This document shows, in pieces, positions 11,566-29,100 of a stretch of 64,000 nucleotides of DNA. The notes under the pieces were generated by a model that was given only the letters and a program-made list of their open reading frames with translations, ran no database searches and was not told where the DNA came from. Numbering within the stretch: position 1 is the first letter of the stretch; every line of letters begins with the position of its first letter. This stretch comes from Alphaproteobacteria bacterium (lineage in GTDB: Bacteria > Pseudomonadota > Alphaproteobacteria > UBA828), in NCBI GenBank assembly GCA_965237415.1, contig CBDEFM010000002.1, positions 3,744,001-3,808,000 of the forward strand. The letters are read 5' to 3'. Made by a program: the position numbers and the translations under genes.

Positions 11566-12752
11566 TAGTCACCTGAATCTAAAGTTCGTGGCATAAGTTT
11601 TGATCGACGCGGAGGCAGAAGCGTTTGACGGCGGCGAGGATGTCGTCGGCCGATTTGGTCCACCTGAAGGGCTTGGGGTCTTGGTTGTGCTTTTCGATGA
11701 AGGCCCGGATATCGGCTTCGAGCTGGCGGGTGGAGGTGTGCACGCCGCGCTGCAACTGCTTTCGCGTCAACTCGGCGAACCAGCGTTCGACCTGATTGAT
11801 CCAGGACGCCGACGTCGGCGTGAAGTGGACATGCCAGTGCGCTCGCCGCGCCAGCCAAGCCTTGACCGCCGCGGTCTTGTGAGTGGCGTAATTGTCCATG
11901 ACGATGTGGACGTCCAGCCCCTCGGGGACCGAGCGGTCGATCTCTTTCAGGAAGTCGAGAAACTCCCTGGCCCGGTGGCGCCTGTAGCACTTGCCGATGA
12001 CGCGGCCCGTGGCGACATCGAGGGCTGCGAACAGCGAGGTGGTGCCGTGACGCTTGTAATCGTGCGTGCGCCGCTCAGGCATGCCCGGCAACATCGGCAG
12101 GACCGGCTGTGTACGGTCGAGCGCCTGGATCTGGCTCTTCTCGTCGACGCAGAGCACCAGCGCGCGGTCCGGCGGCGAGAGATAGAGCCCAACGATGTCG
12201 CGGACCTTGTCCACGAAGTGCGGATCGCCCGACAGCTTGAAGGTCTCCGAGCGGTGCGGCTGCAAGCCGAAGGCGCCCCGGATGCGCCAGATCGTCGTGT
12301 GCGAAAGGCCGCTTTCCCTGGCCATCGAGCGCAACGACCAATGGGTGGCGTCCGCCGGCGTCGCGCTGAGCGTCCGCTCGACAACCTTGGCCACCTGATC
12401 GTCCGTGAGCGTTCGCGGCCGTCCCGGCCGAGGCTCATCCGACAGCCCCTCGATGCGCTCCTTCAGGAAGCGGCGGCGCCACTTGCCGACCGTGTGCTCG
12501 TGCACGCCGATCTCGGCGGCCACCGCCTTGTTGGTCAGGCCGTCTGCGCAGCGCAGGATCATGCGGCAGCGATCGGAGATCGAGCGCGCGACCCGGCGCC
12601 GTCGAGCCTGACGCTCAAGATACGACCGCTCTTCATCGCTCAGAACCAAGACCGCCATCGGCCGGCCAGTACCACGCGCCATCGCAATGACCTCCACAGC
12701 CACACCACGATGAACAGCCTACACTGAGCCTTACTTCAGTGCCAGATGACTA
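11566..12752 (-). mobile_element. IS630-family element, apparently complete
   Basis: Ends TAGTCACCTGAATCT / CAGTGCCAGATGACTA, TA in CTAG context at both ends. Confidence 0.93.
11579..12682 (-). CDS. IS630 transposase
   Basis: HTH plus DDE motifs [24 protein letters not shown]. Confidence 0.95.
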
Positions 12753-12881: not shown

Positions 12882-12969
12882 GTGTGTGTATGCGTAAAGC
12901 GGATAGACACGGTTTGAACTACATGGGCGGCTCACATCACTCGACCCACGCTATTCGGTCTTCGCGGCT

Positions 12970-13440
12970 TTGGCCGAACCGTTGCGCTATCGTCGTCTGT
13001 GTGCGGAGCACCAAGTGGCCGACCGCGTCCGTGAGCTGCTCGACACGATGGAGCTGTCGCCGGACTTGATGCTGAGGCGGCCCAATCAGCTCTCAGGCGG
13101 TCAGCGGCAGCGGGTCGGTATCGCCCAAGCCCTCACGCTCGACCCCGAGATCATTATCGCAGACGAGGTGACATCGGCCCTCGACGTCACGATCCAGGCA
13201 TAGATACTCGAGCTCTTCAAGCGGCTGCGAAGAGAGATCAGGTTGACGCTGATTCTCATTTCCCACGATCTTGGTGTCGTCGGTCACCTCAGCGATACAG
13301 TGAAGGTGCTACGGCACGGACGGCTCGTGGAATACGGCGCAGCGGACGATGCGTTCACGCGGCCACGCGACCCTTATACGAAGACCCTACTCGACTCGAT
13401 TCCAAGGCTGACTCGCCGCCTCGCGGCAACCGGTCGACTG
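12970..13440 (+). pseudogene. Peptide ABC ATPase C-terminal fragment
   Basis: [28 protein letters not shown] with TAG at 13201; no Walker A half. Confidence 0.85.
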
Positions 13441-15330
13441 GGAAAGCCGTCGCGACAAGGCTGGGAGAGATCGGTTCCATTGCCCAGCCGATCCATTCCC
13501 GCTGCCGCGCGCGATAGACGGCAATGCCATGGCCGTTGCGGAAGCTGCGTACCCGCGCTTCCGTCCAGGAGTTGCCTCGCCCGGTCTTCTTGCCGAGGCG
13601 GTTGAGCGTGGCCGCGATCCCGCCATCGGGCAGCTGCCTCGCCAGGCCACGAACCAGGTCGACCACCTCGGCGCTCGCCGCCCATCGATGCTGTCCCCTA
13701 CGGTTGCGTGGCACGCTCAGGCGCGTGTGGTCGCCGCCACGCCAGTGGAGAAGAAGGTCGATGCGGCCATCGGCCAGCGTGACGACGATCTCCGCGAGCA
13801 CCGACCGGAGGATGCCCTTGCGCGTCTCGGCGGTTGCATCGGGGTGCGTCCACGCCGTCGCAAGATCGTTACCCAGCGCCATCAGCCGCCCCTTCTCCTT
13901 GCACGACGGGACCTCGGGACGGGCGGCCGCGTTGGTGGCGAGCCGCTCCTCCTGCCGGCGCACCTCCGCCAGCCGGTCGTTCCACCGTCGCTCCAGCTCG
14001 GCCGCCACCAGGCGGTTGGCGGGATCGACGGTATCGTATTGGCGCTGTGCGAGTTCGGCCTCGTAGCGCGCCTGTGTCAGCGCCAGCTCCGCCTGCCGCC
14101 GGGTCTCGGTGTTGTCGCTCTCTCGCATCTCGATAGCGGCCAGCGCCGCCTCGACCCCGAGCGGGCACAGCAGTCGCAGCACGGCGTCGCCGACGGCGGC
14201 ATCCACCCGCAGGCCGCCGAAGCCGATGCAGCGCCCGGTTCCGTGGTTGACGTGTGCACCGTGGCAGCCGTAGCGGACGCAGTACCCCTTGGTCCCGCTG
14301 TAGTGGACATGCACGCGTCGGCCGCAGTGTCCGCAGCGCAGCAGGCCCGCAAGCAGCGCATCGCCTCGGCGGACGGCGCCCCTTGCCATCAGGCCCCGGC
14401 AGTTGGCGTTGTCGGCGATCAGCCGCTGGTTCCTCTCGAACTCGTCCCAGGAAACGTAGCCGTCGTGGTGATCCCGGATCAATACGTCCCACTCCGAGCG
14501 GTCGCGGCGGAAGCCGCGGGTCACGCGCTTGCGCCCGTTCTCGACGGTCACCCGGCTTTCCGTCCGGCCGAACGCGTACGCGCCGCCGTATACCGGGTTG
14601 GTCAACAGCTTGTGGACGGTGCCGTAGACCGGCGGCTTCCAGACAATGCGGCGCTCCTCGCCAACGATACTCACGGCCGGCAGCGGCACGTCCTCCTGCC
14701 TCAGCCACAGGTGAACCTGGCGGATGCTCCGGAACTCCGCGAACTTGCGGAACACGAGATCGATCGCCTCTCGCACGCGCCGATCGGGATCCTTGGCGAT
14801 CCGGTCGCGCCGGACCTTCACGTAGCCCACCGCGACGGTGAGGAACAGCTCGCCGCGGGACGCCTTCAGGCGAAGCGCTTCGAGCGAGCGCTGGCGCAGC
14901 GTCGAGAGCTCCATCTCCGACAGCGTCCCCTTCATACCGAGCAACAGCCGGTCGTTCGGCAGGCGAGGATCGTACAAGCCGTCATCGTCGCCCAGCAGAC
15001 AGCCCACAAGCGCGCAGAACTCCAGCAACGTGTGCCAGTCACGGCCGTTTCGAGCGAGCCTCGAAGCCTCCAGCGACAGCACGATGCCGACACGCCCTTC
15101 GCAGATCGACACCAGCAGCCGTTCGAAGCCCGGCCGCGACGTCCCGCCGCCGGAGCGGCCGAGATCCTCGTCGATCACCACGGGCTCGTCCCAGCCCAGG
15201 CCGCGGGCCCGATCCGCAAGTCCATACTGACGGCGGCGGCTCTCGTGATTGTTCCGCAGCTGATCCGGCGTCGACTGCCGGATGTAGACGACCGCGTCGC
15301 GCGCCAGGTGGTCAGGCGCGATCTTGTTCA
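13355..15330 (-). CDS. Large serine recombinase with its C-terminal HTH replaced by unrelated read-through
   Basis: YIRQST catalytic motif, CGHC zinc ribbon, coiled coil; diverges from copy 2 after IAVYR. Confidence 0.85.
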
Positions 15331-15497
15331 TCGCCTGCCTCCTTCTCCGTGGCCGTCCCGTCCGCCATGTCCTCGGTCGGGTTCGTCGCCGCTTCGAGCA
15401 GCAGCGCCGCAAGCATCGGGATCACCGCCCCGCGCATCGCCGGCGTCAGTGTCGGACCCGGCTCCAGCTGGTCCAGAAGGTCCCCCTGTCTTCCCAT
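15312..15497 (-). CDS. Small accessory ORF of the recombinase element
   Basis: MGRQGDLL...EAGDEQDRA, conserved in copy 2. Confidence 0.55.
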   Translation of the reverse strand: MGRQGDLLDQLEPGPTLTPAMRGAVIPMLAALLLEAATNPTEDMADGTATEKEAGDEQDRA

Positions 15498-15800
15498 GTC
15501 GCTCTCCCAAGTCCATGTGGGAGGGCAATGGTAGAACGGCGTCAAGCACCGAACGGAGGTCGCGCAAAGCGACCAGCGCGACGCGCGGCCGATCCGTCAC
15601 CGTCATCGCCGACGCGTCCGGGGAACACATCCAGGTCGGTATCTGCGCCAATGTGCCGTCCGGCTGGCGGACGACGTAGATCATGATCCCTTTGAAGCGG
15701 TGGCGCCGAACCACCTCCACGCGCTGGCCCGTCCGCGGGTGGAAGGGGTAGTGGATCTTGACCGGATCGCCCTGATAGCGGGCAGTATGTGGCTGTTCCG
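15327..15800 (-). CDS. DUF5372/Y4bD-like accessory ORF lacking its 5' start
   Basis: Frame open to the element end, includes IHYPFHPRTG upstream of the first GTG. Confidence 0.6.
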
Positions 15801-16503
15801 ACCGGCACGGGCAAGACCCATGTCGCCCTGGGGCTCGGGCTGGCCGCCTGCCAGAGGGGCCTCTCTACGGGCTTCACCACGGCCGCCGCGCTCGTGCACG
15901 AGTTGATGGAAGCCCGCGACGAGCGCCGCCTCCTGCGGCTCCAGAAGCAGATGGTCGCCTGCACGCTGCTAATCATCGACGAGTTGGGCTTCGTGCCGCT
16001 GAGCAAGACCGGCGCCGAGCTTCTGTTCGAGCTGATCTCGCAGCGCTACGAGCGGGGCGCCACGCTCATCACCTCCAACCTCCCCTTCGACGAATGGACC
16101 GGGACCTTCGGCTCCGAGCGCCTGACCGGGGCGCTGCTCGACCGTCTCACCCATCACGTCAACATCCTCGAGATGAACGGCGACAGCTACCGCCTCAGCC
16201 AGAGCCGCGCCCGCAGAAACAGCGCCGATAGCTGAACTCCGGCGCGCCACCGATCGGCCCCGGCCGGCAACGCGCCTCTAAGGCCCGGGTGGCGAGACTG
16301 ACCCCAACCCGACAAACCATGCCGCCCTGCGGGCGGGCGGCGGGCGCGGACCGCTTGAGCTCTGCATGGCTCCGCTGCCCGCTCCCGCCGAAAAACCCTC
16401 GCACCGCGTCTCCGAATCCCAGTCTCACGCCAAGCTCAGCCCACCAGCCCAGGTGGCAGTCTTTTGCGCCGCCCCTTGGCCGAATCTTCAACCGGCGTTG
16501 ACA
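15801..16503 (+). mobile_element. istB: IS21-family remnant: istB 3' part plus right end
   Basis: TGTGKTH, LLIIDELG, TSNLPF, ALLDRL; terminus ...GGCGTTGACA. Confidence 0.9.
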
Positions 16504-16889: not shown

Positions 16890-17624
16890 TCAGAAGTGCG
16901 ATTGATCGTCGACCACGGCCTCGTCGAAACCGAAATAGGCCTTTTCGAGCTGCTCGTCCGTGAGGTCGCTGCTCTTGCCCTCCAGTTCGATCTGGCCTCG
17001 GCGCATGATGTATATCCGATCACTGTTTTCCAACGCGCGGTGCGTGCTTTGTTCGACCACGAGCAACGTCATGCGCTCATCGCACAAGGCCCTCAGGGTC
17101 TCGTAGACCGTGTCCACAATCATGGGCCCAAGGCCGAGCGAGGGCTCGTCGAGCAGGATCAGGCGCGGACCCGTCATCAACGCCCGTGCGATCACCAGCT
17201 GCTGCTGCTCACCGCCAGACAGCTTGCCGCCGGGCGTCGACAGCTTGTCCCGTAAGAACGGAAAGATGCTCAGCATGCGTTGGAAATCCTCCTCGATACG
17301 GGAGCGATCGCGACGCATCTGGCTACCGAGCCGGATATTCTCCTCAACGGTCAACTGTGTGAACACGTTCCGGCCCTCCGGCACGAGCGAGAGGCCCATG
17401 CGGGCAATATTTTCCGGCGCGTGGCCCGTGATCGAGCGGCCCAGCAGCTTGATGGTTCCTTCCGTAGGAGTGAGTGAGCCCGCGATACTGCGTAACGTGG
17501 TTGACTTGCCCGCACCGTTGGGGCCGACGATGCAGACCATCTCGCCTTCGTCCACCCGAACCGAGACTCCACGTACGGCCCGCACGCGGCCGTAGCGGAC
17601 ATGGATGTTTTCAACTTCGAGCAT
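16890..17624 (-). CDS. Liv-type ABC ATPase (LivF-like)
   Basis: GPNGAGKST, LSGGEQQ, LDEPSLGL. Confidence 0.92.
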   Translation of the reverse strand: MLEVENIHVRYGRVRAVRGVSVRVDEGEMVCIVGPNGAGKSTTLRSIAGSLTPTEGTIKLLGRSITGHAPENIARMGLSLVPEGRNVFTQLTVEENIRLGSQMRRDRSRIEEDFQRMLSIFPFLRDKLSTPGGKLSGGEQQQLVIARALMTGPRLILLDEPSLGLGPMIVDTVYETLRALCDERMTLLVVEQSTHRALENSDRIYIMRRGQIELEGKSSDLTDEQLEKAYFGFDEAVVDDQSHF

Positions 17625-18375
17625 CTTGCGGTTTTGACCCCAGGTAGGCCCGGATCACGTCGGGATTGGTTTGGATCTCCCCCGGTGGGCCCTCAGCTAC
17701 CGAGTGCCCGCTCTCAATCACATGAATGCGCTCGCATACCCCCATGATCACGCGCATGTTGTGTTCGATCAACAGCACGCCGCAGCTGAAATCCGTCGGG
17801 ATACGGGCAATAAGCTGCATGACGTCGTCGCACTCGGCGTCGGTCAGGCCAGCAGCAGGCTCGTCTAGAAGCACGAATTGAGGCGCGCTTGCGAGTGCGC
17901 GGCCAATACCGACACGTCGCTCGTCGCCATACGGCAAGCTATCAGCGAGGTCGTACGCTTTGTGCTCAAAATGCATCCACTCCAGGATGTCCATGGCCCG
18001 TTTTTCCGCTGCCCGGCGCGTGAGCCCGTTTCCCACTGCGGCGATTTCGAGATTCTCTAGCACTGATAGGTCGCGGAACAAGCGGACCGCCTGGAAGGTG
18101 CGCGCGAGCCCCGCGCGACCGATCCTGTAGGGCGGCCAGTCTGTGATGTCACGACCGCCGAGAGTGACTGTTCCGGCTGTCGCCTTTTGAAAGCCGGTGA
18201 GCACGTTGACCAGCGTCGTCTTGCCCGAACCGTTGGGGCCGATGAGACCGAAGATCTCCGTCCGGCCGAGGGAAATGCTCAGACCGTTAAGAGCTGCCAA
18301 ACCCTCGAATTGCACCGAGATATCAAGTGCCTCAAGGAGCTCGGCATCCGAGCTGTCTGTCGAGGTCTCGCTCAT
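17611..18375 (-). CDS. Liv-type ABC ATPase (LivG-like), start uncertain
   Basis: GPNGSGKTT, ARTFQ, LPYG, LDEPAAG. Confidence 0.9.
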   Translation of the reverse strand: MSETSTDSSDAELLEALDISVQFEGLAALNGLSISLGRTEIFGLIGPNGSGKTTLVNVLTGFQKATAGTVTLGGRDITDWPPYRIGRAGLARTFQAVRLFRDLSVLENLEIAAVGNGLTRRAAEKRAMDILEWMHFEHKAYDLADSLPYGDERRVGIGRALASAPQFVLLDEPAAGLTDAECDDVMQLIARIPTDFSCGVLLIEHNMRVIMGVCERIHVIESGHSVAEGPPGEIQTNPDVIRAYLGSKPQDARS

Positions 18376-18433
18376 GTGCCGTTGCACGTCCTCCATTCGC
18401 CTCTGGGGCATGGTTTCAGTCTCCCGTCCGCGC

Positions 18434-19513
18434 CTACTCGGCACCTGCCTCGAGGGCTCGCGGCGGGACACTCCGGGCAGGCTTAGGCGGTCCGAAGGGC
18501 CAGGGTATCTCGCGTCCGCCCATGATGCCTGCCGGTCTGAAGATCATGATCGCCAGCATTACGCCGCCAAGAATAATCTCCTGCAAGCCCAGCGGTAACT
18601 GAATGAGCGCCGAGCCGATCTCCGCGCCCTTCTCTAGTTGGCGGAAGACTTCCGTCACCGCGGTGATGACGATAACCCCCACGACCGCGCCTGCCAGCGA
18701 GTTCTGGCCCCCCACGACGAGCATGGCGAGCGTGATGAAGGTGAGCTGAATCCAGAAAGCGTTGACGGTGAGTATCCCGAGGAAGTGACCGTGCAGCACG
18801 CCCCCAATGCCGACGACGAAGCCGCTTAGCGTGAAGGCGATGACGCGCTGCATGTAGACGTTGACGCCAAAGGCGCGCGCTGCCACCTCGTCCTCGCGCG
18901 AGGCACGCAGCGCCAAGCCCAAACGGGATATCTGGTAAAGGTAGGCGATGGCCAAGACGACCAACGCCCAATAGAACACGACCCACATATCGACATACAT
19001 TGGCAGCCCAATGATCGAGCTCGTACCCAGCGTGACCCTCTCCCAGTTGTTGTAGATGGTGTAGCCCATGGCCATCGCCGCAAACGTAGCTATGCTGATG
19101 GCGATAGGATTCGTGCGCATGATGGCCAGCGCGAGGACGAAGGAGACAGCAGCGGCGAGCAGCCCGGCGAGAATGAGTGCCGGCAGAGGATCGAGTTGTG
19201 CCGCGATCAGAAAGTCGGGCAAACCCGGCAACGTGAACCTCTTCAAGCTAGGCAGAAGGGTCAACCACGCCGCGGCGTAGGCGCCGATCATCATGTAGAC
19301 GATGCTGCCGAAGGAAAGAACGCCCGAATTACCCATGAAGATATAAATTCCGACGACGACGATCAGCTTGATAAGCCCGTCGGCGACCGTGCGCTGCATG
19401 AGGATACCTCCCGAAGCATCCACGGCAACGACGATGATCAGCAAGATGACGGCTAAGGACGCAAAGGGCCAAATCCGGCGCAGCTGCCTCTCAACCGGCC
19501 CCATTCCTCGCAT
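18434..19513 (-). CDS. Liv-type permease (LivM-like)
   Basis: GLALRASREDEVAA, FRPAGI. Confidence 0.9.
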   Translation of the reverse strand: MRGMGPVERQLRRIWPFASLAVILLIIVVAVDASGGILMQRTVADGLIKLIVVVGIYIFMGNSGVLSFGSIVYMMIGAYAAAWLTLLPSLKRFTLPGLPDFLIAAQLDPLPALILAGLLAAAVSFVLALAIMRTNPIAISIATFAAMAMGYTIYNNWERVTLGTSSIIGLPMYVDMWVVFYWALVVLAIAYLYQISRLGLALRASREDEVAARAFGVNVYMQRVIAFTLSGFVVGIGGVLHGHFLGILTVNAFWIQLTFITLAMLVVGGQNSLAGAVVGVIVITAVTEVFRQLEKGAEIGSALIQLPLGLQEIILGGVMLAIMIFRPAGIMGGREIPWPFGPPKPARSVPPRALEAGAE

Positions 19514-20428
19514 CTAGACGCGTTCCCTAACGGCTTTGGTCACGATCAGACCCTGCGGCCGGAAAATCAACACCAGGATAACGAAGCCGAAGACAAACGC
19601 GTCGCGTGTCAACTTGTAGTCATCCGGAAGTACGGTCTGAAGGGTAGTGCTCATCACGCCCACCAGGAAGCCCCCGGCCGCAGCCCCAAATAGACTTCCC
19701 ATGCCTCCGATTACCGTCGAGATGAAGGCAATAATCACCAGATTGAGGCTCATCCGAAAGCTCAGCACACCAGTTTGTGTGATGAAGATGAGCGAGACCA
19801 CAGCAGCCAACATGCCGCTTATGGCGAATGCCAATGCGATCACCGTGTTAGCCCGCACGCCCAGGAGGCGCGCCGTCTCGAAGTCCTCGGCTGCCGCGCG
19901 CATCTGGACGCCGTAAGCAGTGCGCTTCAAAAATAGTGCAAGGCCCCCCAGCAGCGTGATCGCCGCACCGATTGCTACGAGTTGGATGGCGGGAACGCGC
20001 AGTCCCACAAACTCGATGTGCCTGGCAAGCGAGATACCGACATTTACGGCTTTGGGGCGGCCGGTGTAGATCAAGATAATAATATGCTGAAACACGTAGC
20101 TGACCGCAAAAGATGCGATCAGTAAGCTCGCCATGTTCGCGCCCCTCAGCGGGCGAAACGCGATGACCTCGGTCAGGAGTGCGATGACGATAACGATCGA
20201 TATAATAGCTGGAATCAGAAAAATTGCAGGCCAAGTACCAATAAATGGGGTCGCTACCACGGCAGCAGCCGGCACGATAAGCGCATAGGCGCCTATGGTT
20301 ATGAAGTCGCCATGCGCAAAATTGATCAGTCTCAGGATGCCGAATATGAGACCGATCCCGAGTGCCGTTAGGGAATACATACTGCCGAGACTTATGGCAT
20401 CGATGGCAATCTGTACAACGAACGTCAT
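19514..20428 (-). CDS. Liv-type permease (LivH-like)
   Basis: INFAHGD, GGMGS, RPQGL. Confidence 0.92.
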   Translation of the reverse strand: MTFVVQIAIDAISLGSMYSLTALGIGLIFGILRLINFAHGDFITIGAYALIVPAAAVVATPFIGTWPAIFLIPAIISIVIVIALLTEVIAFRPLRGANMASLLIASFAVSYVFQHIIILIYTGRPKAVNVGISLARHIEFVGLRVPAIQLVAIGAAITLLGGLALFLKRTAYGVQMRAAAEDFETARLLGVRANTVIALAFAISGMLAAVVSLIFITQTGVLSFRMSLNLVIIAFISTVIGGMGSLFGAAAGGFLVGVMSTTLQTVLPDDYKLTRDAFVFGFVILVLIFRPQGLIVTKAVRERV

Positions 20429-20478
20429 GACGGATAATCTGCCATTCTCACGGGTGCATTCACACTCGTGTTAGCTCG

Positions 20479-20528
20479 GACATTGAATGTTGGATTAGGT
20501 TTTGACACTGAATGTTGGATTAGGCTTT
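20479..20528. repeat. 25-bp tandem duplication
   Basis: GACATTGAATGTTGGATTAGGTTTT followed by GACACTGAATGTTGGATTAGGCTTT. Confidence 0.85.
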
Positions 20529-20697
20529 AAGGGCGTAGGTGAACGCACGCATCTCCGGGCCGCCGCCGGTTGGGAAGGGAAGCTGCCACTCTCCCCGCCT
20601 AGAATCCCCGACAGGGCCGCGGAAAGAGACGAGGACGAGGCTCGGTCCGACGGCTCCGGAATGAGCCCCGTCCCCTTCAATTTAAGACGCTATACAA

Positions 20698-21969
20698 TCA
20701 GTCCCACGCCTTTAGCTTGCTGATATCCCAAGCTTTCTCTGCCCGGTACTTCTCAAGAAACTCCAGCTTACCTTTACCCTGCACCTCGAAGAAGGTGAAC
20801 GGCCTGCGGTTCTGGATGTGCGTGTCCGCTGTCCATGTGGTGACACCGATCAGGAGTGGTGCGTCCGTGAAGGTCTCCATCGCCTCGACGACCGCCATCG
20901 GCTCGTCTGTGCCCGCCTGCTCAAGTGCTTTGACGTAAGCTTGCACCATACTGTAGCCGAGGTAAACGTGCGAGGATGGCGGCATTTCACCGTACTTCGC
21001 CTGATAGCGCTCCAGGAACACCTTTTCCTGCGGCGTGAAGTTCTCGGGCGAGAAGACATTGCCATGCGTACCATGGTAATAGTTCTTGAGCCCCGGCACA
21101 GAGTCCATCCAGAACTGGCCCGCATAGGACTCTGAGGTTAGCACTGGTGTCTCGATTCCCGCAGCCCTGATTTGTCGCAGCGCGGAGGCGCCACCTGGGA
21201 TGTAGGAACAGATCATCATGACGTCGGGCTCGGGATCAATCGCCTTATACTGGGTAATCTGAGCGGCGATCGACGGATCGTCCTGCTTGAAGACATCCTG
21301 GCCGACAAGCTCGGCGCCCTCCAGTTCTTGCCAGCGCTCATTGAAGCCAACGCAAAGCGACTTGTCATACTCGATTGAGTTATCGAGGAGCGAATACGCT
21401 CGGCGCCAGCCCTTTCGATTATAGCCCCACTCGGCGAGCACATAGCCCTGGGCGTTGGCCGCGGTCGACATGGTAAAGATCGTCGGACCGATGCCCTGAA
21501 CGCCGATCTTGGGATCGGAACCGCATACGGAGACACCGACAATTCCCGCCGCCGCATATTGCAGGGCGGCAGGACCACCCATGTCGTAGTCGCACGAGAA
21601 GGCGGCAAATTTTGCGCCGCCTTGAACCATTTCAGCGCCGCATTTGGCGCCCTGTTCGCGGTCCGCTTTTGTATCGCACTTGATGATTTCCAGTTTGCGC
21701 CCACCAAGCACGCCGTTGTTCGTGTTAACCTGCGGAACGCCCAAAATGTCCGCGTCGATGAGCTGACCGGCGTTTACGTCGTCGACGGCGATCTCCATGG
21801 CTCTCTGTGGTTGGCCGTCATAGGTCAGCATCCAGTTCGAGAAATCCAGAGCCTGGCCGATGATGATCGGGTCGCTCTCGGCGCTCGCTTTCTGCGGCCC
21901 GACGAGAGCGCTCAGCGAAAGCACGAGGGCCAGCGCCGAGGTCAGAAGGGCAATCTTTGGCATTGACAT
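20698..21969 (-). CDS. Liv-type substrate-binding protein
   Basis: Signal peptide, GVLGGRKLEII, position in operon. Confidence 0.88.
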   Translation of the reverse strand: MSMPKIALLTSALALVLSLSALVGPQKASAESDPIIIGQALDFSNWMLTYDGQPQRAMEIAVDDVNAGQLIDADILGVPQVNTNNGVLGGRKLEIIKCDTKADREQGAKCGAEMVQGGAKFAAFSCDYDMGGPAALQYAAAGIVGVSVCGSDPKIGVQGIGPTIFTMSTAANAQGYVLAEWGYNRKGWRRAYSLLDNSIEYDKSLCVGFNERWQELEGAELVGQDVFKQDDPSIAAQITQYKAIDPEPDVMMICSYIPGGASALRQIRAAGIETPVLTSESYAGQFWMDSVPGLKNYYHGTHGNVFSPENFTPQEKVFLERYQAKYGEMPPSSHVYLGYSMVQAYVKALEQAGTDEPMAVVEAMETFTDAPLLIGVTTWTADTHIQNRRPFTFFEVQGKGKLEFLEKYRAEKAWDISKLKAWD

Positions 21970-22150
21970 CTCCCTAGGTGGCCGCGCCTCCCGGGTTTGT
22001 GCTTCTTGATTTTCCCCTGTCTTCGTCGCGCCACCGACACCCGCCGGGACGCAACGACGAGGCGGGTGCCACGTCTGTTGCCCCCCATTCTGACGGTTGT
22101 CGACCATGGTCGGCAAGGAGAATCCATCAGAAAAGAGAATCCATCAGAAA

Positions 22151-22684: not shown

Positions 22685-22883
22685 CCTGCTTATCCGTGTC
22701 ACTCCGCCTGTGGGGATGTATGTTCTCAATATGTTCTGTATGAGGGGGTCACGGTTATGGGGTTCAAGGTTGCATCGCGCGTGCGTGGTTTGAGCGACGA
22801 GGCGTTTCGCGAGGCCTTCGGTACCGAGGAGCAGTGCCGCGCGGCGCTGCTCCGGCTGCGCTGGCCGGACGGCTTCCTCTGCC
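22685..22883 (+). mobile_element. IS1595-like 5' end with transposase zinc-ribbon start (ATG 22757), cut by IS21
   Basis: CCTGCTTAT end; FREAFGTEEQCRAALLRLRWPDGFLC. Confidence 0.8.
22722..22736. promoter_or_regulatory. Alphaproteobacterial LexA box
   Basis: GTTC-TCAATAT-GTTC, 20 bp upstream of the transposase ATG. Confidence 0.65.
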
Positions 22884-23908
22884 TGTTAACGGCGGAGGAA
22901 TAATGCTCCACGCGGAGCGATCGGACGGTCCGGTCGCGGCGGCGCAAAAATGCGCCAACCATGGTCCTTTGTCGGTTGCGACGAGGGGCGGGGGATGTAC
23001 GGCGTGGAGCTCTATGCGGCGGTTCGACTGGCGGTTGTCGACGAGGGTTTGAGCCATCACGAGGCGGGCCGTCGGTTCGGCATCGACCGTCGCACGGTGA
23101 AGAAGATGCTGAGCTACTCGGCGCCGCCGGGCTACCGCCGGACGAAGCCGGTCAGGCGGCCCAAGCTGGACGGGTTCACCGGCATCGTCGACGCGATCCT
23201 GGAGGCGGACACGGATCCGGATGTGCCGCGCAAGCAGCGCCACACGGCGCACCGGATCTTCGAGCGGCTGCGGGACGAGTACGGGTTCACCGGCGGCTAT
23301 ACCATCCAGACCGTGTGAAAACGTCATTGAATTCAGATTTTCGAGTAAGTCTGCTTGATTTCTGAAAAGTGCAGCCTGCTAAGTCATTGATTTCATTAAC
23401 ACTGAAAATTCAACCAATGGGCTGAAATCACATTTCGAGCGATTCTCCGACGTTTTGACACAGTCTGCATCGTGAAGGACTATGTGCGTTCCCGGCGGCA
23501 ATCGACGCGCGAGGCCTTCGTTCCACTGCATCACCCGCCGGGCCATGCCCAGGTCGACTTCGGCGAGGCGGTGGTGGAGCTGCGGGGGCAGCGGGAGAAG
23601 GTCGCCTTCTTCTGCCTGATCCTGCCCCATTCCAACGTCTGGTTCGTCAAGGCCTATCCGAGGGAGACGACCGAGGCCTTCCTCGACGGCCATGTCAGCG
23701 CCTTCGCCTTCCTCGGCGGGGTTCCGCGCTCGATCCTCTACGACAACACCACCCTTGCGGTGGCGCGGATCCTGGGCGACGGCACGCGCCGCAGGACGCA
23801 GGCGTTCTCACATCTTCAGTCGCACTACCTGTTCCGCGACCGCTTCGGCCGGCCCGGCAAAGGCAACGACAAGGGGAAGGTGGAGGCCCTGGTGAAGACG
23901 GCGCGGCG
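22884..23908 (+). mobile_element. istA: IS21 partial copy: left end plus interrupted, truncated istA
   Basis: TGTTAACGGCGGAGGAATAATG end; near-identical to 28165-29018 in reverse. Confidence 0.92.
23307..23467. mobile_element. 161-bp MITE inside istA
   Basis: TIRs CAGACCGTGTGAAAACGTC / GACGTTTTGACACAGTCTG; CATC duplication; empty site ACCATCGTG seen in the intact istA. Confidence 0.92.
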
Positions 23909-24090
23909 TGTCAACGGCGGCGAGATTATGTACCGGCGCGGCGGCGTAAAAATGTACCACGGGCTCGGTGGTAGCTTGTCCGCGTAGTCCACGGGAGGGA
24001 CCCGCGCGCGCGGGTCGACGCGCCCTGTGCGCGGCTGGCGGCGGCCCGCGCGTGGGTGGGGCCTATGGGCCCACGGGGACAAGCGGGGGG

Positions 24091-24523
24091 TTATTCGGAC
24101 GGGCGCTGGCGTCGCGATCGGCTCTGCCTGAGCCGGTAGCTGTCTGCGTTCATCTCCAGGATATGGACATGGTGGGTGATGCGGTCGAGCAGCGCGCCGG
24201 TGAGGCGCTCGCTGGCGAAGACCGTTGTCCATTCCTGGAAGGGCAGGTTTGAGGTCACGATTGTGGCGCCGTTTTCGTAGCGCCGGCTGAAGACGTCGAA
24301 CAGCAGTTCGCTTCCGGTCTGCGAGAGGGGCACGTAGCCGAGCTCGTCGACGATCAGGAGATTGACCCTGGCGAGCTGGTCCTGGAGGCGGAGGAGCCTC
24401 TTCTCGTCGCGCGCCTCGATCATCTCGTGGACCAGGTGAGAGGCGGTGGTGAAGCGCACGGAGAGGCCCTTCTGGCAGGCGGCAAGCCCGAGGGCGAGCG
24501 CGACATGCGTCTTGCCGACGCCT
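24091..24523 (-). pseudogene. istB: istB 3' part
   Basis: GVGKTH, LLIVDELG, ALLDRI. Confidence 0.92.
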
Positions 24524-24525
24524 GA

Positions 24526-24998
24526 CGGAACAGCCACACACTGCCCGATACCAGGGCGGTCCGACGAAGATCCACTACCCCTTCCACCCCCGCACGGGCC
24601 AGCGCGTGGAAGTGGTTCGGCGCCACCGCTTCAAGGGGACCATGATCTACGTCGTCCGCCAGCCGGATGGCACGCTGGCGCAGATACCGACCTGGATGTG
24701 CTTTCCAGACGCGGCGGCGATGACGGTGACGGATCAGCCGCGGATCGCGCTGGACGCCCTGCGCGACCTCCGTTCGGACATCGACGCTGTTCTACCATCG
24801 CCCTCCCGCATGGATTTGGGAGGGCGACATGGGAAGACAGGGAGAGCTGTTGGAACTACTGGAGCCGGGTCCGGCACTCACGCCGGCGATGCGAGGGGCG
24901 GTAATCCCGATACTGGCGGCGCTGCTGCTCGAAGCGGCAGCGAACCCGACGGAGGACATGGCGGACGGGACGGCCACGGAGAAGGAGGCGGGCGATGA
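24526..24998 (+). CDS. DUF5372/Y4bD-like accessory ORF whose start lies at the other end of the element
   Basis: Open frame EQPHTARYQGGPTKIHYPFHPRTGQRVEVVRR; stop overlaps the recombinase ATG. Confidence 0.65.
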
Positions 24999-25014
24999 AC
25001 AAGATCGCGCCTGA
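24829..25014 (+). CDS. Small accessory ORF
   Basis: RBS GGAGG; conserved with copy 1. Confidence 0.55.
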   Translation: MGRQGELLELLEPGPALTPAMRGAVIPILAALLLEAAANPTEDMADGTATEKEAGDEQDRA

Positions 25015-27054
25015 CCATCTGGCGCGCGAGGCGGTCGTCTACATTCGGCAGTCGACGCCGGACCAGCTGCGGCACAACCACGAGAGCCGCCGTCGTCAGT
25101 ACGGCCTTGCGGATCGGGCTCGCGGTCTGGGCTGGGACGAGCCCGTGATTATCGACGAGGATCTCGGCCGCTCTGGAGGCGGAACGTCGCGGCCGGGCTT
25201 CGATCGGCTGCTGCTGGCGATCTGCGAAGGGCGCGTCGGCATCGTGCTGTCGCTGGAGGCTTCGAGGCTCGCTCGAAACGGCCGCGACTGGCACACGCTG
25301 CTGGAGTTCTGCGCGCTTGTGGGCTGCCTGCTGGGCGACGAGGACGGCTTGTATGATCCTCGCCTGCCGAACGACCGTCTATTGCTGGGTATGAAGGGGA
25401 CGCTGTCGGAGATGGAGCTCTCGACGCTGCGCCAGCGCTCGCTCGAGGCGCTGCGCCTGAAGGCGTCCCGTGGCGAGCTATTCCTCAGCGTCGCGGTGGG
25501 CTACGTGAAGGTCCGATGCGACCGGATCGCCAAGGATCCCGACCGGCGCGTGCGTGAGGCAATCGATCTCGTGTTCCGCAAGTTCGCGGAGTTCCGGAGC
25601 ATCCGCCAGGTCCACCTCTGGCTGCGGCAGGAGGAAGTGCTGCTGCCGGCCGTCAGGATCGTTGGCAAGGAGCGCCATATTGTCTGGAAGCCGCCGGTCT
25701 ACGGCACCGTCCACAAGCTGATGACCAACCCCGTCTACGCCGGCGCGTACGCGTTTGGCCGGACGGAGAGCCGCGTGACCGTCGAGAACGGACGCAAGCG
25801 CGTCACGCGCGGCTTTCGCCGCGATCGCGCGGACTGGGACGTGTTGATCCGCGATCACCACGAAGGCTACGTTTCCTGGGACGAGTACGAGAGGAACCAG
25901 CGTCTGATCGCCGACAACGCCAACTGCGGGGCTTGATGGCAAGGGGCGCCGTGCGCCGCGGCGATGCGCTGCTCGCGGGCCTGCTGCGCTGCGGACACTG
26001 CGGCCGGCGTGTGCACGTCCACTACAGCGGCACCAAGGGGTACTGCGTCCGTTACGGCTGCCAAGGCGCGCATGTCAACCACGGCACCAGGCCGTGCATC
26101 GCCTTCGGCGGCTTGCGCGTGGATACTGCGGTCGGCGATGCAGTGCTGCGACTGCTATCTCCGCTCGGCGTCGAAGCGGCGCTGGCCGCCATCGAGACCC
26201 GTGAGAGCGACAACGCCGAGATCCGACGGCAGGCGGAGCTGGCGCTGACGCAGGCGCGCTACGAGGCCGATCTGGCACAGCGCCAATACGATGCCGTCGA
26301 TCCAGCTAACCGCCTTGTCGCGGCCGAGCTGGAGCGACGGTGGAACGACCGGCTGGCGGATGTGCGCCGGCAGGAGGAGCGGCTCGCCGCCACTGCGGCC
26401 GCCCGTCCGGAGGCACCGTCATGCGCGGAGAAACAGCGCTTGATGGCGCTGGGCGATGATCTCTCGACGGCGTGGTCGCGCCCCGATGCCACCGCCGAGA
26501 CGCGCAAGGCCATCCTGCGCGCGGTTCTGGAGGAGATCGTCGTCACGCTGGCCGATGGCTGCGTTGACCTTCTTCTCCACTGGCGTGGCGGCGACCACAC
26601 GCGTCTGAGCGTGCCGCGCAACCGTAGGGGACAGCATCGCTGGGCGGCGAGCGCCGAGGTGGTCGACCTGGTTCGCGGACTGGCGAGGCAGCTGCCGGAC
26701 GGCGCGATCGCGGCCACGCTCAACCGCCTCGGCAAGAAGACCGGGCGAGGCAACTCGTGGACGGAAGCGCGGGTGCGCACCTTCCGCAATAGCCGTGGCG
26801 TTGCCGTCTTCCGATCAGGCGAGATGGCGGAGCGGGGCGAGCTGACGCTGACCGATGCCGCCGCACGGCTCGGCATCAGCAAGATGACGGTGCTGCGGTT
26901 GATTGCGGGCGGCACAATCGACGCCACGCAGGTGTGCAAGGGAGGGCCATGGGCCATCCCGGAGGCGCTGATAGACGCCCTGTACGGCACTGACCTGCGC
27001 CAATCGCGCCCGCTAACAGCCGATCCGAACCAGGAACAGCTGGATTTTCAATAA
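24995..27054 (+). pseudogene. Large serine recombinase with a 1-bp frameshift near 25928
   Basis: AACTGCGGGGCTTGATG versus AACTGCCGGGGCCTGATG in copy 1; C-terminal HTH and terminal QLDFQ. Confidence 0.9.
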
Positions 27055-27086
27055 CGTAGCGAGGTGTGCATTATGCACTCGGACTC

Positions 27087-27418
27087 GAGGGCCCGAGCAG
27101 GATCGCGTTCTCGCGCCGCTCGATCCACTCGCAGCGCGCCAACTCCAGCACCTGCGCCTTGTTCAGCGCGGGGATGGCCTTGAAGTCGAAGCTGTCGAGG
27201 CTCTTGGCGACCGGGAACTTCGCCGCCTTGATGCGCCGCTCGACCATGCGCCGTTCGCGATCGATCAGTTCCAGCTCCACCAGCCGGGCCAGGAACTGAA
27301 CATGATCCAGGGCCTCGGCCGCGCACTGGCGCGCCAGTTTCTCGTACTCGCGCAGAAAGGTCGGCAGCTTCAGCTTCTTCAGATGATGCTCGAGCAGGAT
27401 GCGCGGCGCCTCAGCCAT
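27087..27418 (-). pseudogene. istB: istB 5' part
   Basis: LKKLKLP...RRIKAAKFP...ENAILLGPS. Confidence 0.92.
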
Positions 27419-28907
27419 GGCCGGCGGCCAGCAGGGTGGCGTAATCGGCGCTACGGGTGGCGGCGACGAAGGGCTGGGGGAGGTGCGGATAGCGTGTCAG
27501 GTCGAGACGGGCCGGCCGCTTCTCGATGCGCGCCAGCAGCAGGTGCTTGACCGCATCGAAGCCGATCACGCGCCGCTTCACCGCGTCCTGCACCGCGGCC
27601 GTCACCTGGCGCTCCGGAAAGTCCTCCAGCAGGCGCAGCACCTGGATGTATTCGCGCTTGCCGCGCGGCCCGAAGCGGGCTTCGAGGAGGCGGCGCAGCG
27701 TGTCGAAGGCCGGATCGAGCTTCCACCCCCGCAGCGGCGCCGCCTGGTCCAGGGCGCCCGGCTTCCTCTCCAGCAACGACAGATAGTGCAGCGGGTCGTA
27801 GACGACGTCGCCGCGGACATAGGAGCGCCTATGGCGGGCGACGATCTCGGCGCCGAGCGCGATCTCGACCCGGTCGACATAGCCCTTGATCGTCACCTTC
27901 TTGTGGGCGTGCACCGCCGGCGCCGAGTAGTCCACCAACCGGTAGCGCACCAGGGCCGTCGAGGAGACCTGGCCCGGCACATGCTCGCAGGCCTCGAAGG
28001 GAGAAGCCGGCAGATCGCGCAGGGCGTCGAGATCGGCGAGCAGCGCCGCCGCCTGCTCCCCTGCCTCCAGCGCGTCGAGCCGCTCCAGGCACCGAGCCAT
28101 CAGCCGCTCGTTCAGGACCGACAGGTCATGCACCTTCGGGATCGGAACCATGAACCGGCGCCGCGCCGTCTTCACCAGGGCCTCGACCTTGCCCTTGTCG
28201 TTGCCCTTGCCGGGCCGGCCGAAGCGGTCGCGGAACAGGTAGTGCGACTGAAGATGTGAGAACGCCTGCGTCCTGCGGCGCGTGCCGTCCCCCAGGATCC
28301 GCGCCACCGCAAGGGTGGTGTTGTCGTAGAGGATCGAGCGCGGAACCCCGCCGAGGAAGGCGAAGGCGCTGACATGGCCGTCGAGGAAGGCCTCGGTCGT
28401 CTCCCTCGGATAGGCCTTGACGAACCAGACGTTGGAATGGGGCAGGATCAGGCAGAAGAAGGCAACCTTCTCCCGCCTGCCTCCGACCTCGACCGTCGCC
28501 TCGCCGAAGTCGACCTGGGCATGGCCCGGCGGGTGATGCAGTGGAACGAAGGCCTCGCGCGTCGATTGCCGCCGGGAACGCACATAGTCCTTCACGATGG
28601 TGTAGCCGCCGGTGAACCCGTGCTCGTCCCGTAGCCGCTCGAAGATCCGATGCGCCGTGTGACGCTGCTTGCGCGGCACGTCCGGATCCGTGTCCGCCTC
28701 CAGGATCGCGTCGACGATGCCGGTGAACCCGTCCAGCTTGGGCCGCCTGACCGGCTTCGTCCGGCGGTAGCCCGGCGGTGCCGAGTAGCTCAGCATCTTC
28801 TTCACCGTCCGGCGGTCGATGCCGAACCGCCGGCCCGCCTCGTGATGGCTCAGACCCTCGTCGACAACCGCCAGTCGAACCGCCGCATAGAGCTCCACGC
28901 CGTACAT
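27411..28907 (-). CDS. istA: IS21 transposase IstA
   Basis: AQVDFG, LYDN, KGKVE. Confidence 0.95.
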   Translation of the reverse strand: MYGVELYAAVRLAVVDEGLSHHEAGRRFGIDRRTVKKMLSYSAPPGYRRTKPVRRPKLDGFTGIVDAILEADTDPDVPRKQRHTAHRIFERLRDEHGFTGGYTIVKDYVRSRRQSTREAFVPLHHPPGHAQVDFGEATVEVGGRREKVAFFCLILPHSNVWFVKAYPRETTEAFLDGHVSAFAFLGGVPRSILYDNTTLAVARILGDGTRRRTQAFSHLQSHYLFRDRFGRPGKGNDKGKVEALVKTARRRFMVPIPKVHDLSVLNERLMARCLERLDALEAGEQAAALLADLDALRDLPASPFEACEHVPGQVSSTALVRYRLVDYSAPAVHAHKKVTIKGYVDRVEIALGAEIVARHRRSYVRGDVVYDPLHYLSLLERKPGALDQAAPLRGWKLDPAFDTLRRLLEARFGPRGKREYIQVLRLLEDFPERQVTAAVQDAVKRRVIGFDAVKHLLLARIEKRPARLDLTRYPHLPQPFVAATRSADYATLLAAGHG

Positions 28908-29024
28908 CTCCTGCCCCTCGTCGCAACCGACAAGGGACCATGAGTGGCACAATTTTGCGCCGCCGCGACCGGACCGTCCGGTCGCTCCGCGTGGAGCATT
29001 ATTCCTCCGCCGTTAACAGGGGAG

Positions 29025-29100
<76 letters not shown>

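Follow-up and report, generated by a model that had tools for sequence, protein, structure and literature searches.

In a 64,000-nucleotide stretch of an Alphaproteobacteria bacterium genome (assembly GCA_965237415.1, contig CBDEFM010000002.1, positions 3,744,001 to 3,808,000; hereafter the window), the istB gene of an IS21-family insertion sequence (IS) is split within its Walker A codons by a 2,563-bp cassette that encodes a large serine recombinase (LSR), and relatives of the cassette in other bacteria split P-loop genes at the same codon. The cassette is very probably a cargo-free integrative element, whose LSR joins the attachment site of the element (attP) with an attB that consists of the DNA encoding the P-loop of AAA+ ATPases. 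The enzyme class and its mechanism are known; what is new is an attB defined by a protein motif and located on other mobile elements, together with the minimal organization of the cassette.

The full-length cassette of the window (copy 2), including both GA cores, occupies positions 24524 to 27088 of the plus strand, and the core is present at each end (24524-24525 and 27087-27088). On this strand the left end reads GCCT GA CGGAAC and the right end ACTC GA GGGCCC. When the 2,563 bp are taken out of istB the sequence G-P-S-G-V-G-K-T is back in frame, the split point being the Ser codon at position 3 of the Walker A motif G-P-x-G-x-G-K. Because the bases beside GA differ between the target and the joined ends of the cassette, GA is the sole possible 2-bp crossover of copy 2; a crossover outside the core was ruled out by these same flanking bases. 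The interrupted gene is on the minus strand, with an N-terminal half (27089-27418) that encodes 110 amino acids ending in LLGP, and a C-terminal half (24091-24523, coding part 24523-24094) that begins with the third base of the Ser codon, continues as GVGKTH and closes with a stop codon. The first-pass annotation of the window, which described a 2,563-bp cassette that splits istB, repeats GA and restores GPSGVGK upon excision, is thus confirmed by the sequence and its translations.

Copy 2 carries, all on the plus strand, a DUF5372 gene (ORF1; ORF, open reading frame), a small conserved ORF (ORF2) and the frameshifted LSR. The recombinase gene (24995-27054) is broken into two parts, 24995-25936 and 25933-27054, by the lack, in the assembled sequence, of one base relative to copy 1 (the second cassette of the window) near 25929. 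In Pfam searches the first part matched Resolvase and Recombinase, and the second Zn_ribbon_recom and HTH_17, the C-terminal helix-turn-helix (HTH) being of the excisionase type. The catalytic domain is readily identified (PF00239, E 1.6e-22 and 1.1e-21), S20 of the Y-x-R-Q-S-T catalytic motif is invariant in 26 aligned sequences, and both PF07508 (Recombinase) and PF13408 (zinc beta-ribbon) score above their cut-offs. The conservative insertion, with a 2-bp crossover at both junctions (GA, with empty paralogues at 99.3% identity), is that of an LSR element. Both cassettes of the window are decayed, through frameshift and truncation respectively, and are relics or passengers. From their sequences, most members of the family look functional, as 53 of 61 loci contain an intact recombinase ORF of ~685 amino acids.

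A pattern-based scan of one genome per species yielded 156 relatives of the recombinase, the best 80 of which were surveyed. Their recombinase proteins are 57-99% identical, and they derive from Alpha-, Beta- and Gammaproteobacteria, Vicinamibacterales, Bryobacterales and Dormibacterota (Pseudomonadota, Acidobacteriota and Dormibacterota), with one metagenome-assembled genome labelled Bacillaceae. For each element the start motif of DUF5372 served as left anchor and a conserved GAGGTG..ATG motif as right anchor, and the flanks, read on the opposite strand, were checked for the two Walker A halves in exact register. By this test 58 of the 66 assessable left junctions displayed ..GK[STA] in exact register, while 62 of 70 assessable right junctions ended in G[PGAST]. 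Both sides were positive at 53 of 60 loci and at least one side at 67 of 76, with 4 loci too short to assess; the surveyed loci comprise 43 distinct flank pairs. The frequency of ..GK[STA] in the 80 loci is 4.0e-4 of codon positions, from which 0.19 occurrences would be expected (66 loci x 7 offsets) against the 58 observed. The length of the element is 2539-2608 bp, with a single outlier of 2787 bp. Three entire short-read contigs (L036, 2557 bp; L051, 2547 bp; L079, 2545 bp) consist of nothing but the element, from one core to the other, which is what a repeat present in many copies with differing flanks should yield.

The targets were IstB at 54 loci, TniB at 4, Lon-type or other AAA proteins at 4 and, at 5, a P-loop half without an assigned family. 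The IstB targets, which span at least five IstB subfamilies, were detected by tblastn with seven IstB types of the source genome, down to 30-45% mutual identity, and the TniB and Lon/AAA targets by Pfam. The attB consensus derived from the 43 sites is ~40 bp long and contains the codons for ..L-L-G-P-x-G-x-G-K-T-H-L-A; its GC-rich Gly and Pro codons generate the near-palindrome CCG-NN-CGG around the core, which compares with CG-NN-CGG at the joined ends of the cassette. In the motif G-[PGA]-x-[GN]-x-G-K-[ST], crossover takes place at the third codon, on its first two bases. The proposal in the first-pass annotation that the element uses the Walker A codons of istB as attB, and that the flanks of homologues should reveal this, is borne out by the split istB, at the same codon, in 54 of 80 loci; the specificity is wider than was stated, as tniB, Lon-like and other P-loop genes are also split at codon 3. 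In every P-loop insertion the cassette genes are antisense to the target, which is the only orientation that was tested.

In a quick IQ-TREE phylogeny, from which rows with stops, partial matches and duplicates were left out, the TniB-targeting elements occupy one clade and three Lon-targeting elements another, inside an otherwise IstB-targeting family. At the tniB loci (L044, L045, L046 and L065) the sites read G-A-x-N-N-G-K, showing that the fourth residue need not be Gly, while sub-lineages of the element reside in the Walker A codon of Lon-type protease or AAA genes (L016, L017 and L025, Lon_C plus AAA; L056, AAA). Within one Vicinamibacterales genome, identical recombinase proteins (L019, L022, L023, L024 and L031) are found in istB, in a P-loop gene resembling a helicase and at three sites outside P-loops, and target specificity is therefore strong but not absolute. 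The non-P-loop insertions L024, L031 and L081, all from the genome that contains L019, L022 and L023, have GG at both ends; they are secondary sites with little in common except the core. Since insertion destroys the ATPase, only insertions into dispensable genes would survive, which would favor the helper ATPases of mobile elements; the preferred targets may thus be the dispensable multi-copy P-loop genes of such elements (istB, tniB), insertions into essential genes being lost.

The first two bases of Walker A codon 3 invariably form the core, such that on the cassette strand GG corresponds to Pro, GT to Thr, GA to Ser (TCN), CT to Ser (AGY) and CA to Cys. In 33 of the 43 distinct sites the core is the same at attL and attR (GG 21, GT 6, GA 3, CT 2, CA 1). 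The difference between GA in copy 2 and GT in copy 1, which the earlier annotation had singled out as needing an explanation, is accounted for by this rule, the core being the first two bases of the target codon; copy 2 has GA because its target codon is TCA. The junction of copy 1 reads ACC where an intact paralogue that is 99.3% identical has AGC, and as there are only 3 differences in 440 nucleotides (nt) it is unlikely that the core was altered by a chance substitution. Serine recombinases make a 2-nt staggered cut, which is followed by rotation and religation. An attP core unlike that of attB would generate heteroduplex junctions, and replication would then leave different cores at attL and attR; sites with discordant cores, as well as copy 1, fit such a mismatched-core event. 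It is conceivable, then, that the core is copied from the target rather than read by the enzyme, with mismatches tolerated at some rate, and that a lineage could acquire the core of its last target.

It should be emphasized that several observations weigh against the proposed P-loop-targeting element. The cores are discordant between the two ends in 10 of 43 sites, and the serine integrases studied to date require matching central dinucleotides and are blocked by a mismatch (PMC5062993, PMC3936721), so that tolerance of core mismatches by the cassette recombinase would be unusual among integrases. Nine loci are at non-P-loop sites, and the junction survey covered one orientation and the best 80 of 156 relatives. 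All three full copies in the source genome share the same frameshift, and that genome contains no intact copy of the recombinase. The identity between the window cassette and the copy on contig C1 continues beyond the cassette for 538 bp on one side and 105 bp on the other and falls to ~87% after that, a drop that looks like the boundary of a recombination tract. Instead of integration, movement of IS21, homologous recombination or assembly polishing could have produced the identity of the copies in this genome. No attP junction, as expected of an excised circle, was present in 103 loci scanned for the two arm motifs at attP spacing, and a scan of metagenomes for the attP pattern returned 9 contigs, none of which (0 of 9) encodes the recombinase or ORF1; these are chance matches.

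The arms of the element suggest how the excised form might be expressed. The right arm of attP (27060-27086, plus strand) contains the conserved GAGGTG followed by an ATG (27073-27075) 14 nt before the core, and GCATTATG, which is an inverted-repeat half-site. The distance from ATG to core is 14 nt in 60 of the 62 loci with a right flank ending in G[PGAST]. The left arm (24526-24569, plus strand) is 44 nt long, with variants of 41, 47 and 50 nt, and its half-site, CACACTGC here and CATACTGC in most relatives, lies at +12..+19 counted from the core; the 8-bp half-site is thus present, inverted, at +12..+19 on both arms. ORF1 (24525-24998, plus strand, frame 0) has a conserved domain that starts at 24570, and continues without a stop as far as a TGA overlapping the recombinase ATG, as is the case in 48 of 49 distinct sequences, in which the frame runs to this ATGA and the last ~60 codons overlap ORF2. 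Its match to DUF5372 (PF17342) is marginal and partial (it scores 26.4 bits where the cut-off is 25, with E 7e-6, and aligns residues 16-58 to positions 1-43 of a 78-position profile), and variability at third codon positions is evident at 24571-24795. The gene content reported in the first-pass annotation stands, with the correction that the left end provides no start codon for the DUF5372 frame: in integrated copy 2 no ATG, GTG or TTG precedes the conserved domain. Among 48 distinct left junctions, 40 have a flank without an in-frame start before a stop, and 38 have none inside the left arm. Because the arm variants differ by multiples of 3, the right-end ATG and DUF5372 share a frame once the ends are joined, and this joining produces an ATG-started ORF1 of 155-172 amino acids in 56 of 61 loci. 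In the circular form ORF1 may therefore take its ribosome-binding site from GAGGTG and its start from the right-end ATG. We give a junction-spanning ORF1 a slightly better than even chance.

Co-folding is consistent with a role for ORF1 as a partner of the recombinase. Helix 66-90 of ORF1 was placed against recombinase residues 300-600 (the zinc-ribbon and post-coiled-coil region) with an interface score (ipSAE) of 0.78, compared with 0.00 for the best control. Of 80 solved complexes 58 attained the mark used, as did 2 of 110 mismatched pairs, counts that hold only roughly here, as our own alignments were used. The model confidence (pLDDT) of the partners was at least 79, and at least 85% of contacts were common to the runs. 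The models suggest that ORF1 binds the recombinase, and it may be an accessory protein that is made in full only from the excised circle.

ORF2 (24829-25014, plus strand) encodes 61 amino acids with the motif ..DLF/DLL..LL.EA..DEQD and overlaps the start of the recombinase by 20 nt. Annotated at first pass as a small ORF, it is real and conserved, and additionally overlaps the open tail of the DUF5372 frame. That this frame stays open to the recombinase ATG raised the possibility that ORF2 is spurious; a comparison of the two frames in 20 loci ruled this out, frame 1 being the conserved frame of the region. ORF2 had no match in Pfam or NCBIfam. In single-sequence folds a hairpin, GCCCTCCC...GGGAGGGC (24803-24833, plus strand), pairs the Shine-Dalgarno sequence of ORF2. 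Over 46 sequences the Shine-Dalgarno window was paired at 0.73, against 0.64 with shuffled upstream sequence (Wilcoxon p 4e-4), a modest excess, and RNAalifold on a MAFFT alignment gave no consensus structure for the ORF2 leader. The partner strand of the hairpin is a pyrimidine run within the coding region of ORF1, and its sequences vary by lineage while the pairing persists. Translation of ORF1 could open this hairpin and, through the ATGA overlap, turn on ORF2 and the recombinase for re-integration.

It could be argued that, although the element does target P-loop DNA, ORF1 is a normal gene that starts internally or at a non-canonical codon, GAGGTG..ATG being a binding site only and expression not being specific to the circle. 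Indeed, the ATG belongs to the symmetric half-site (CATAATGC compared with CATACTGC at +12..+19 of both arms), so that its conservation may reflect protein binding rather than translation, and 10 of 48 left arms hold GTG, TTG or ATG. Two further observations weigh against the proposed ORF1: its tail, which overlaps ORF2, displays no codon-position signal after 24796, and a Foldseek search of the PDB with the AlphaFold model of ORF1 (mean pLDDT 79.9) returned no match at E<=0.001, the best being SH3/Tudor/KOW-like barrels at E 0.02-0.2. Against ORF1 as an ordinary gene, GAGGTG lacks a counterpart on the left arm, the arm-length variants are all multiples of 3, nearly all joined frames are open from the right-end ATG, and most flanks and left arms are devoid of a start. 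An ordinary ORF1 is thus possible but, in our view, unlikely.

Other cassettes of the source genome also adjoin istB. Copy 1 (13516-15800, minus strand) is 3'-truncated and lacks the HTH region and attR, its recombinase frame (15331-13532) being open. It is 90.5% identical to copy 2 (2062 of 2279 nt; 91% over cassette positions 3-2286). At 15801 its left end adjoins ACC GGC ACG GGC AAG, the Walker A codons of a different istB, as the first-pass annotation had noted for this diverged second copy. The C-terminal half of that istB, with the core AC (15801-15802), occupies 15801-16235 on the plus strand, as seen in the sequence and by Pfam (IstB_IS21 profile, E 4.7e-48). It shares 315 of 432 nt (72.9%) with the C-terminal half beside copy 2, and 437 of 440 (99.3%) with an intact istB at G000:C2:52324-53070. 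The cassettes are thus much closer to each other than are the genes that they adjoin, which upholds the earlier suggestion of two independent insertions; the equal divergence of cassette and flank that would have indicated one old insertion, duplicated later, was not found.

The source genome, which comprises 2 contigs, contains three full cassettes (100%, 100% and 99.9% identical), copy 1 and three partial copies. Copy 2 of the window is 100% identical to the cassette at G000:C1:250299-252863, and 2 of its 2565 positions differ from the cassette at C2:3638237-3640801. A partial cassette at C2:66043-66742, which has 99% identity to copy 2, adjoins at the same codon position an istB half whose protein is 45% identical to that of the window; this half, in turn, matches an intact istB at C2:3075844-3076563 in 455 of 458 positions (99.3%). 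As intact paralogues of 99.3% identity exist for two of the three istB types, the empty sites can be read directly. All three partial cassettes (C1:22800-23297, C2:3147393-3147898 and C2:66043-66742) are still joined to one istB half. The cassettes also take part in rearrangements of the genome, and the identities of the N-terminal and C-terminal halves between IS21 copies are discordant (89% and 100%, for example).

Occupied IS21 copies have also multiplied. Paraburkholderia sp. HD33-4 (G001, the genome of L067) has 11 copies of one IS21 type, every one of them occupied by the cassette; the genome gives 13 IstB_IS21 matches, each interrupted at profile positions 91-102, and no intact istB is left. 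The same recombinase protein is present in both IS21 types (L067 and L068). This pattern makes visible both integration across IS types and the multiplication of occupied IS copies, and supports the idea, raised at first pass, that the element hitchhikes on IS21. An occupied IS21 would carry the cassette along when it multiplies or moves between genomes. How IS21 spread in HD33-4 without IstB could possibly be explained by transient excision, by an expansion that came first and was then saturated with cassettes, or by help from an element since lost.

Spread of the cassette by homologous recombination or gene conversion between IS21 copies, akin to homing and with no role for the recombinase in insertion, finds some support in the mosaic identity tracts that flank identical cassettes in the source genome, and in the lack of an active recombinase there. 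Such exchange, however, cannot account for targets that share only the P-loop (<=45% identity, tniB and Lon), nor for the invariant 2-bp core, nor for non-P-loop sites with the same 2-bp core at both ends; moreover, Pfam scans revealed no homing endonuclease encoded in the cassette. We regard this explanation as improbable. That a single old insertion into an ancestral IS21 was followed only by duplication and divergence of the composite, without site-specific targeting, is barely credible: while the composite does multiply as a unit within genomes (the 11 identical occupied copies of HD33-4) and three near-identical cassettes share a frameshift in the source genome, flanks are far more diverged than cassettes, a near-identical partial cassette adjoins a distant istB, the same codon is split in tniB and Lon-like genes, identical recombinases occupy different IS21 types as well as non-IS sites, and intact paralogues almost match the occupied halves.

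Returning to the P-loop-targeting element, IstB is an AAA+ regulator that activates the IS21 transposase (PMC11208146). In its fullest form the model would be a switch in which the integrated element, a hyperparasite with biology's most conserved nucleotide-binding motif as its portable landing pad, silences IS21 by depriving it of IstB, and precise excision restores istB and frees IS21 to move; the start of ORF1 would be assembled on the circle alone, opening the ORF2 hairpin and driving translation of the recombinase, so that the element re-enters a copy of istB. Cores inherited from the last target would let a lineage track Pro, Thr, Ser and Cys codons and jump between IstB, TniB and Lon, and between phyla. 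We consider this complete scheme doubtful, and a switch role for the cassette is speculation.

A literature search, for which subscription journals, ISfinder and supplements were outside the scope, yielded no account of any serine-recombinase element that occupies istB or Walker A codons, in agreement with the first-pass annotation, which knew of none; a full-text search for DUF5372 returned 0 papers, and two further articles (PMC13682519, PMC12927932) are irrelevant to the cassette in the parts that were available. The solved structure that best matches the recombinase is SprA (9dxh, E 5.2e-10; related preprint 10.1101/2025.01.03.631226). SprA (YokA) of SPbeta acts with SprB (YotN), and resembles the present system in its Resolvase, Recombinase and zinc-ribbon domains, in the insertion into coding sequence that excision restores, and in the presence of a small partner protein. 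The sequence relation is, however, distant; the cassette is 2.56 kb and cargo-free, its recombinase has an additional C-terminal excisionase-type HTH, its target is a motif shared by many genes rather than one locus, and its putative partner is a DUF5372 protein.

Likewise, in the fdxN element with XisF, in skin, in SPbeta and in 'regulatory switch' prophages an LSR element interrupts a gene that is restored by precise excision. XisF (NF041201) is the best NCBIfam match of the recombinase, at 77.6 bits, far below the cut-off of 375 and hence outside that family, and, in contrast with these developmentally excised elements, the gene interrupted by the cassette belongs to another mobile element. 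IS607-type elements encode a small serine recombinase with an N-terminal HTH, often together with tnpB. The cassette differs in that its recombinase of ~685 amino acids has the catalytic domain first, followed by Recombinase, the zinc ribbon and a C-terminal HTH, and no tnpB-like ORF is present in the cassette.

TnpX of Tn4451 and TndX of Tn5397 are serine recombinases that move between several targets with a 2-bp core that is classically GA. The circle joint of Tn4451 creates a promoter for tnpX, which parallels the circle-specific expression proposed for the cassette. The TnpX N-terminal domain is a weak structural match of the recombinase (2mhc, E 2.9e-7). TnpX/TndX transposons, however, carry cargo and are not known to target sequence that encodes a protein motif, whereas the cassette is cargo-free and targets the P-loop. 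DUF4368, which the main text of PMC10083194 gives for 63% of a multi-targeting LSR clade, had no match in the cassette proteins in Pfam scans, so that the recombinase lacks a domain typical of the TnpX/TndX clade. The same main text (Durrant et al. 2022) reports that diverse LSRs converge on a gene for magnesium chelatase/ATP-dependent protease, which receives 12.4% of predicted site-specific LSRs; here too the conserved coding sequence of an AAA+-type gene serves as attB. IS21, IstB, Walker and ATPase are not mentioned in that main text; its supplementary tables, outside our scope, might list IstB.

The cassette would represent a family of serine-recombinase elements that are cargo-free and have an attachment site set by the Walker A loop rather than by one gene, and a clear case of a mobile element that specializes on the helper ATPases of others (IS21, and tniB of the Tn5053/Tn402 type). 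It accounts for many genes annotated as 'recombinase family protein' beside istA and split istB pseudogenes in rhizobia, Azospirillum, Paraburkholderia and Caballeronia. Indeed, in Sinorhizobium meliloti pSmeRU11b and an Azospirillum plasmid the recombinase gene lies beside istA and bears only this annotation, and 459 plasmid records in PLSDB match at E<=1e-50, 36 of them at 60-80% identity, while the remainder may include other subfamilies. Natural recombinases with a predictable attB of ~40 bp and an apparent tolerance of different central dinucleotides would be of interest to integrase engineering. The element also raises the question of whether IS21 activity is gated by the excision of a resident element.

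The IS21 that hosts copy 2 (23910-29018, minus strand) has terminal inverted repeats, TGT[TC]AACGGCGG, at 29018 and 23910, and measures 2546 bp without the cassette. It displays the hallmarks of the family, with istA (27411-28952, minus strand; 513 amino acids with rve and Mu-transpos_C_2 domains) followed by istB (IstB_IS21 AAA+) and the terminal inverted repeats. Its right end meets, end to end, an inverted partial second IS21 (22882-23908) that consists of the left end and the 5' part of istA, has an internal deletion between 23306 and 23468, and is 96-97% complementary to 28159-29020. A tRNA-Ala(CGC) gene (29025-29100, minus strand) ends 6 bp from the left inverted repeat, placing the IS21 directly beside it. 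Between the two cassettes lies a branched-chain amino acid ABC transporter operon (16890-22116), and an IS630-type transposase gene (DDE_3 with HTH domains) is found at 11579-12703 on the minus strand. No resistance genes were seen among the ORFs of the window that were scanned. At 12900-13500 (plus strand) a fragment of an ABC-transporter ATPase gene, recognized by eye from its LSGGQRQR signature, contains an in-frame stop and runs into the truncated end of copy 1, whose right end and adjoining istB N-terminal half look as if they had been lost through deletion or rearrangement.

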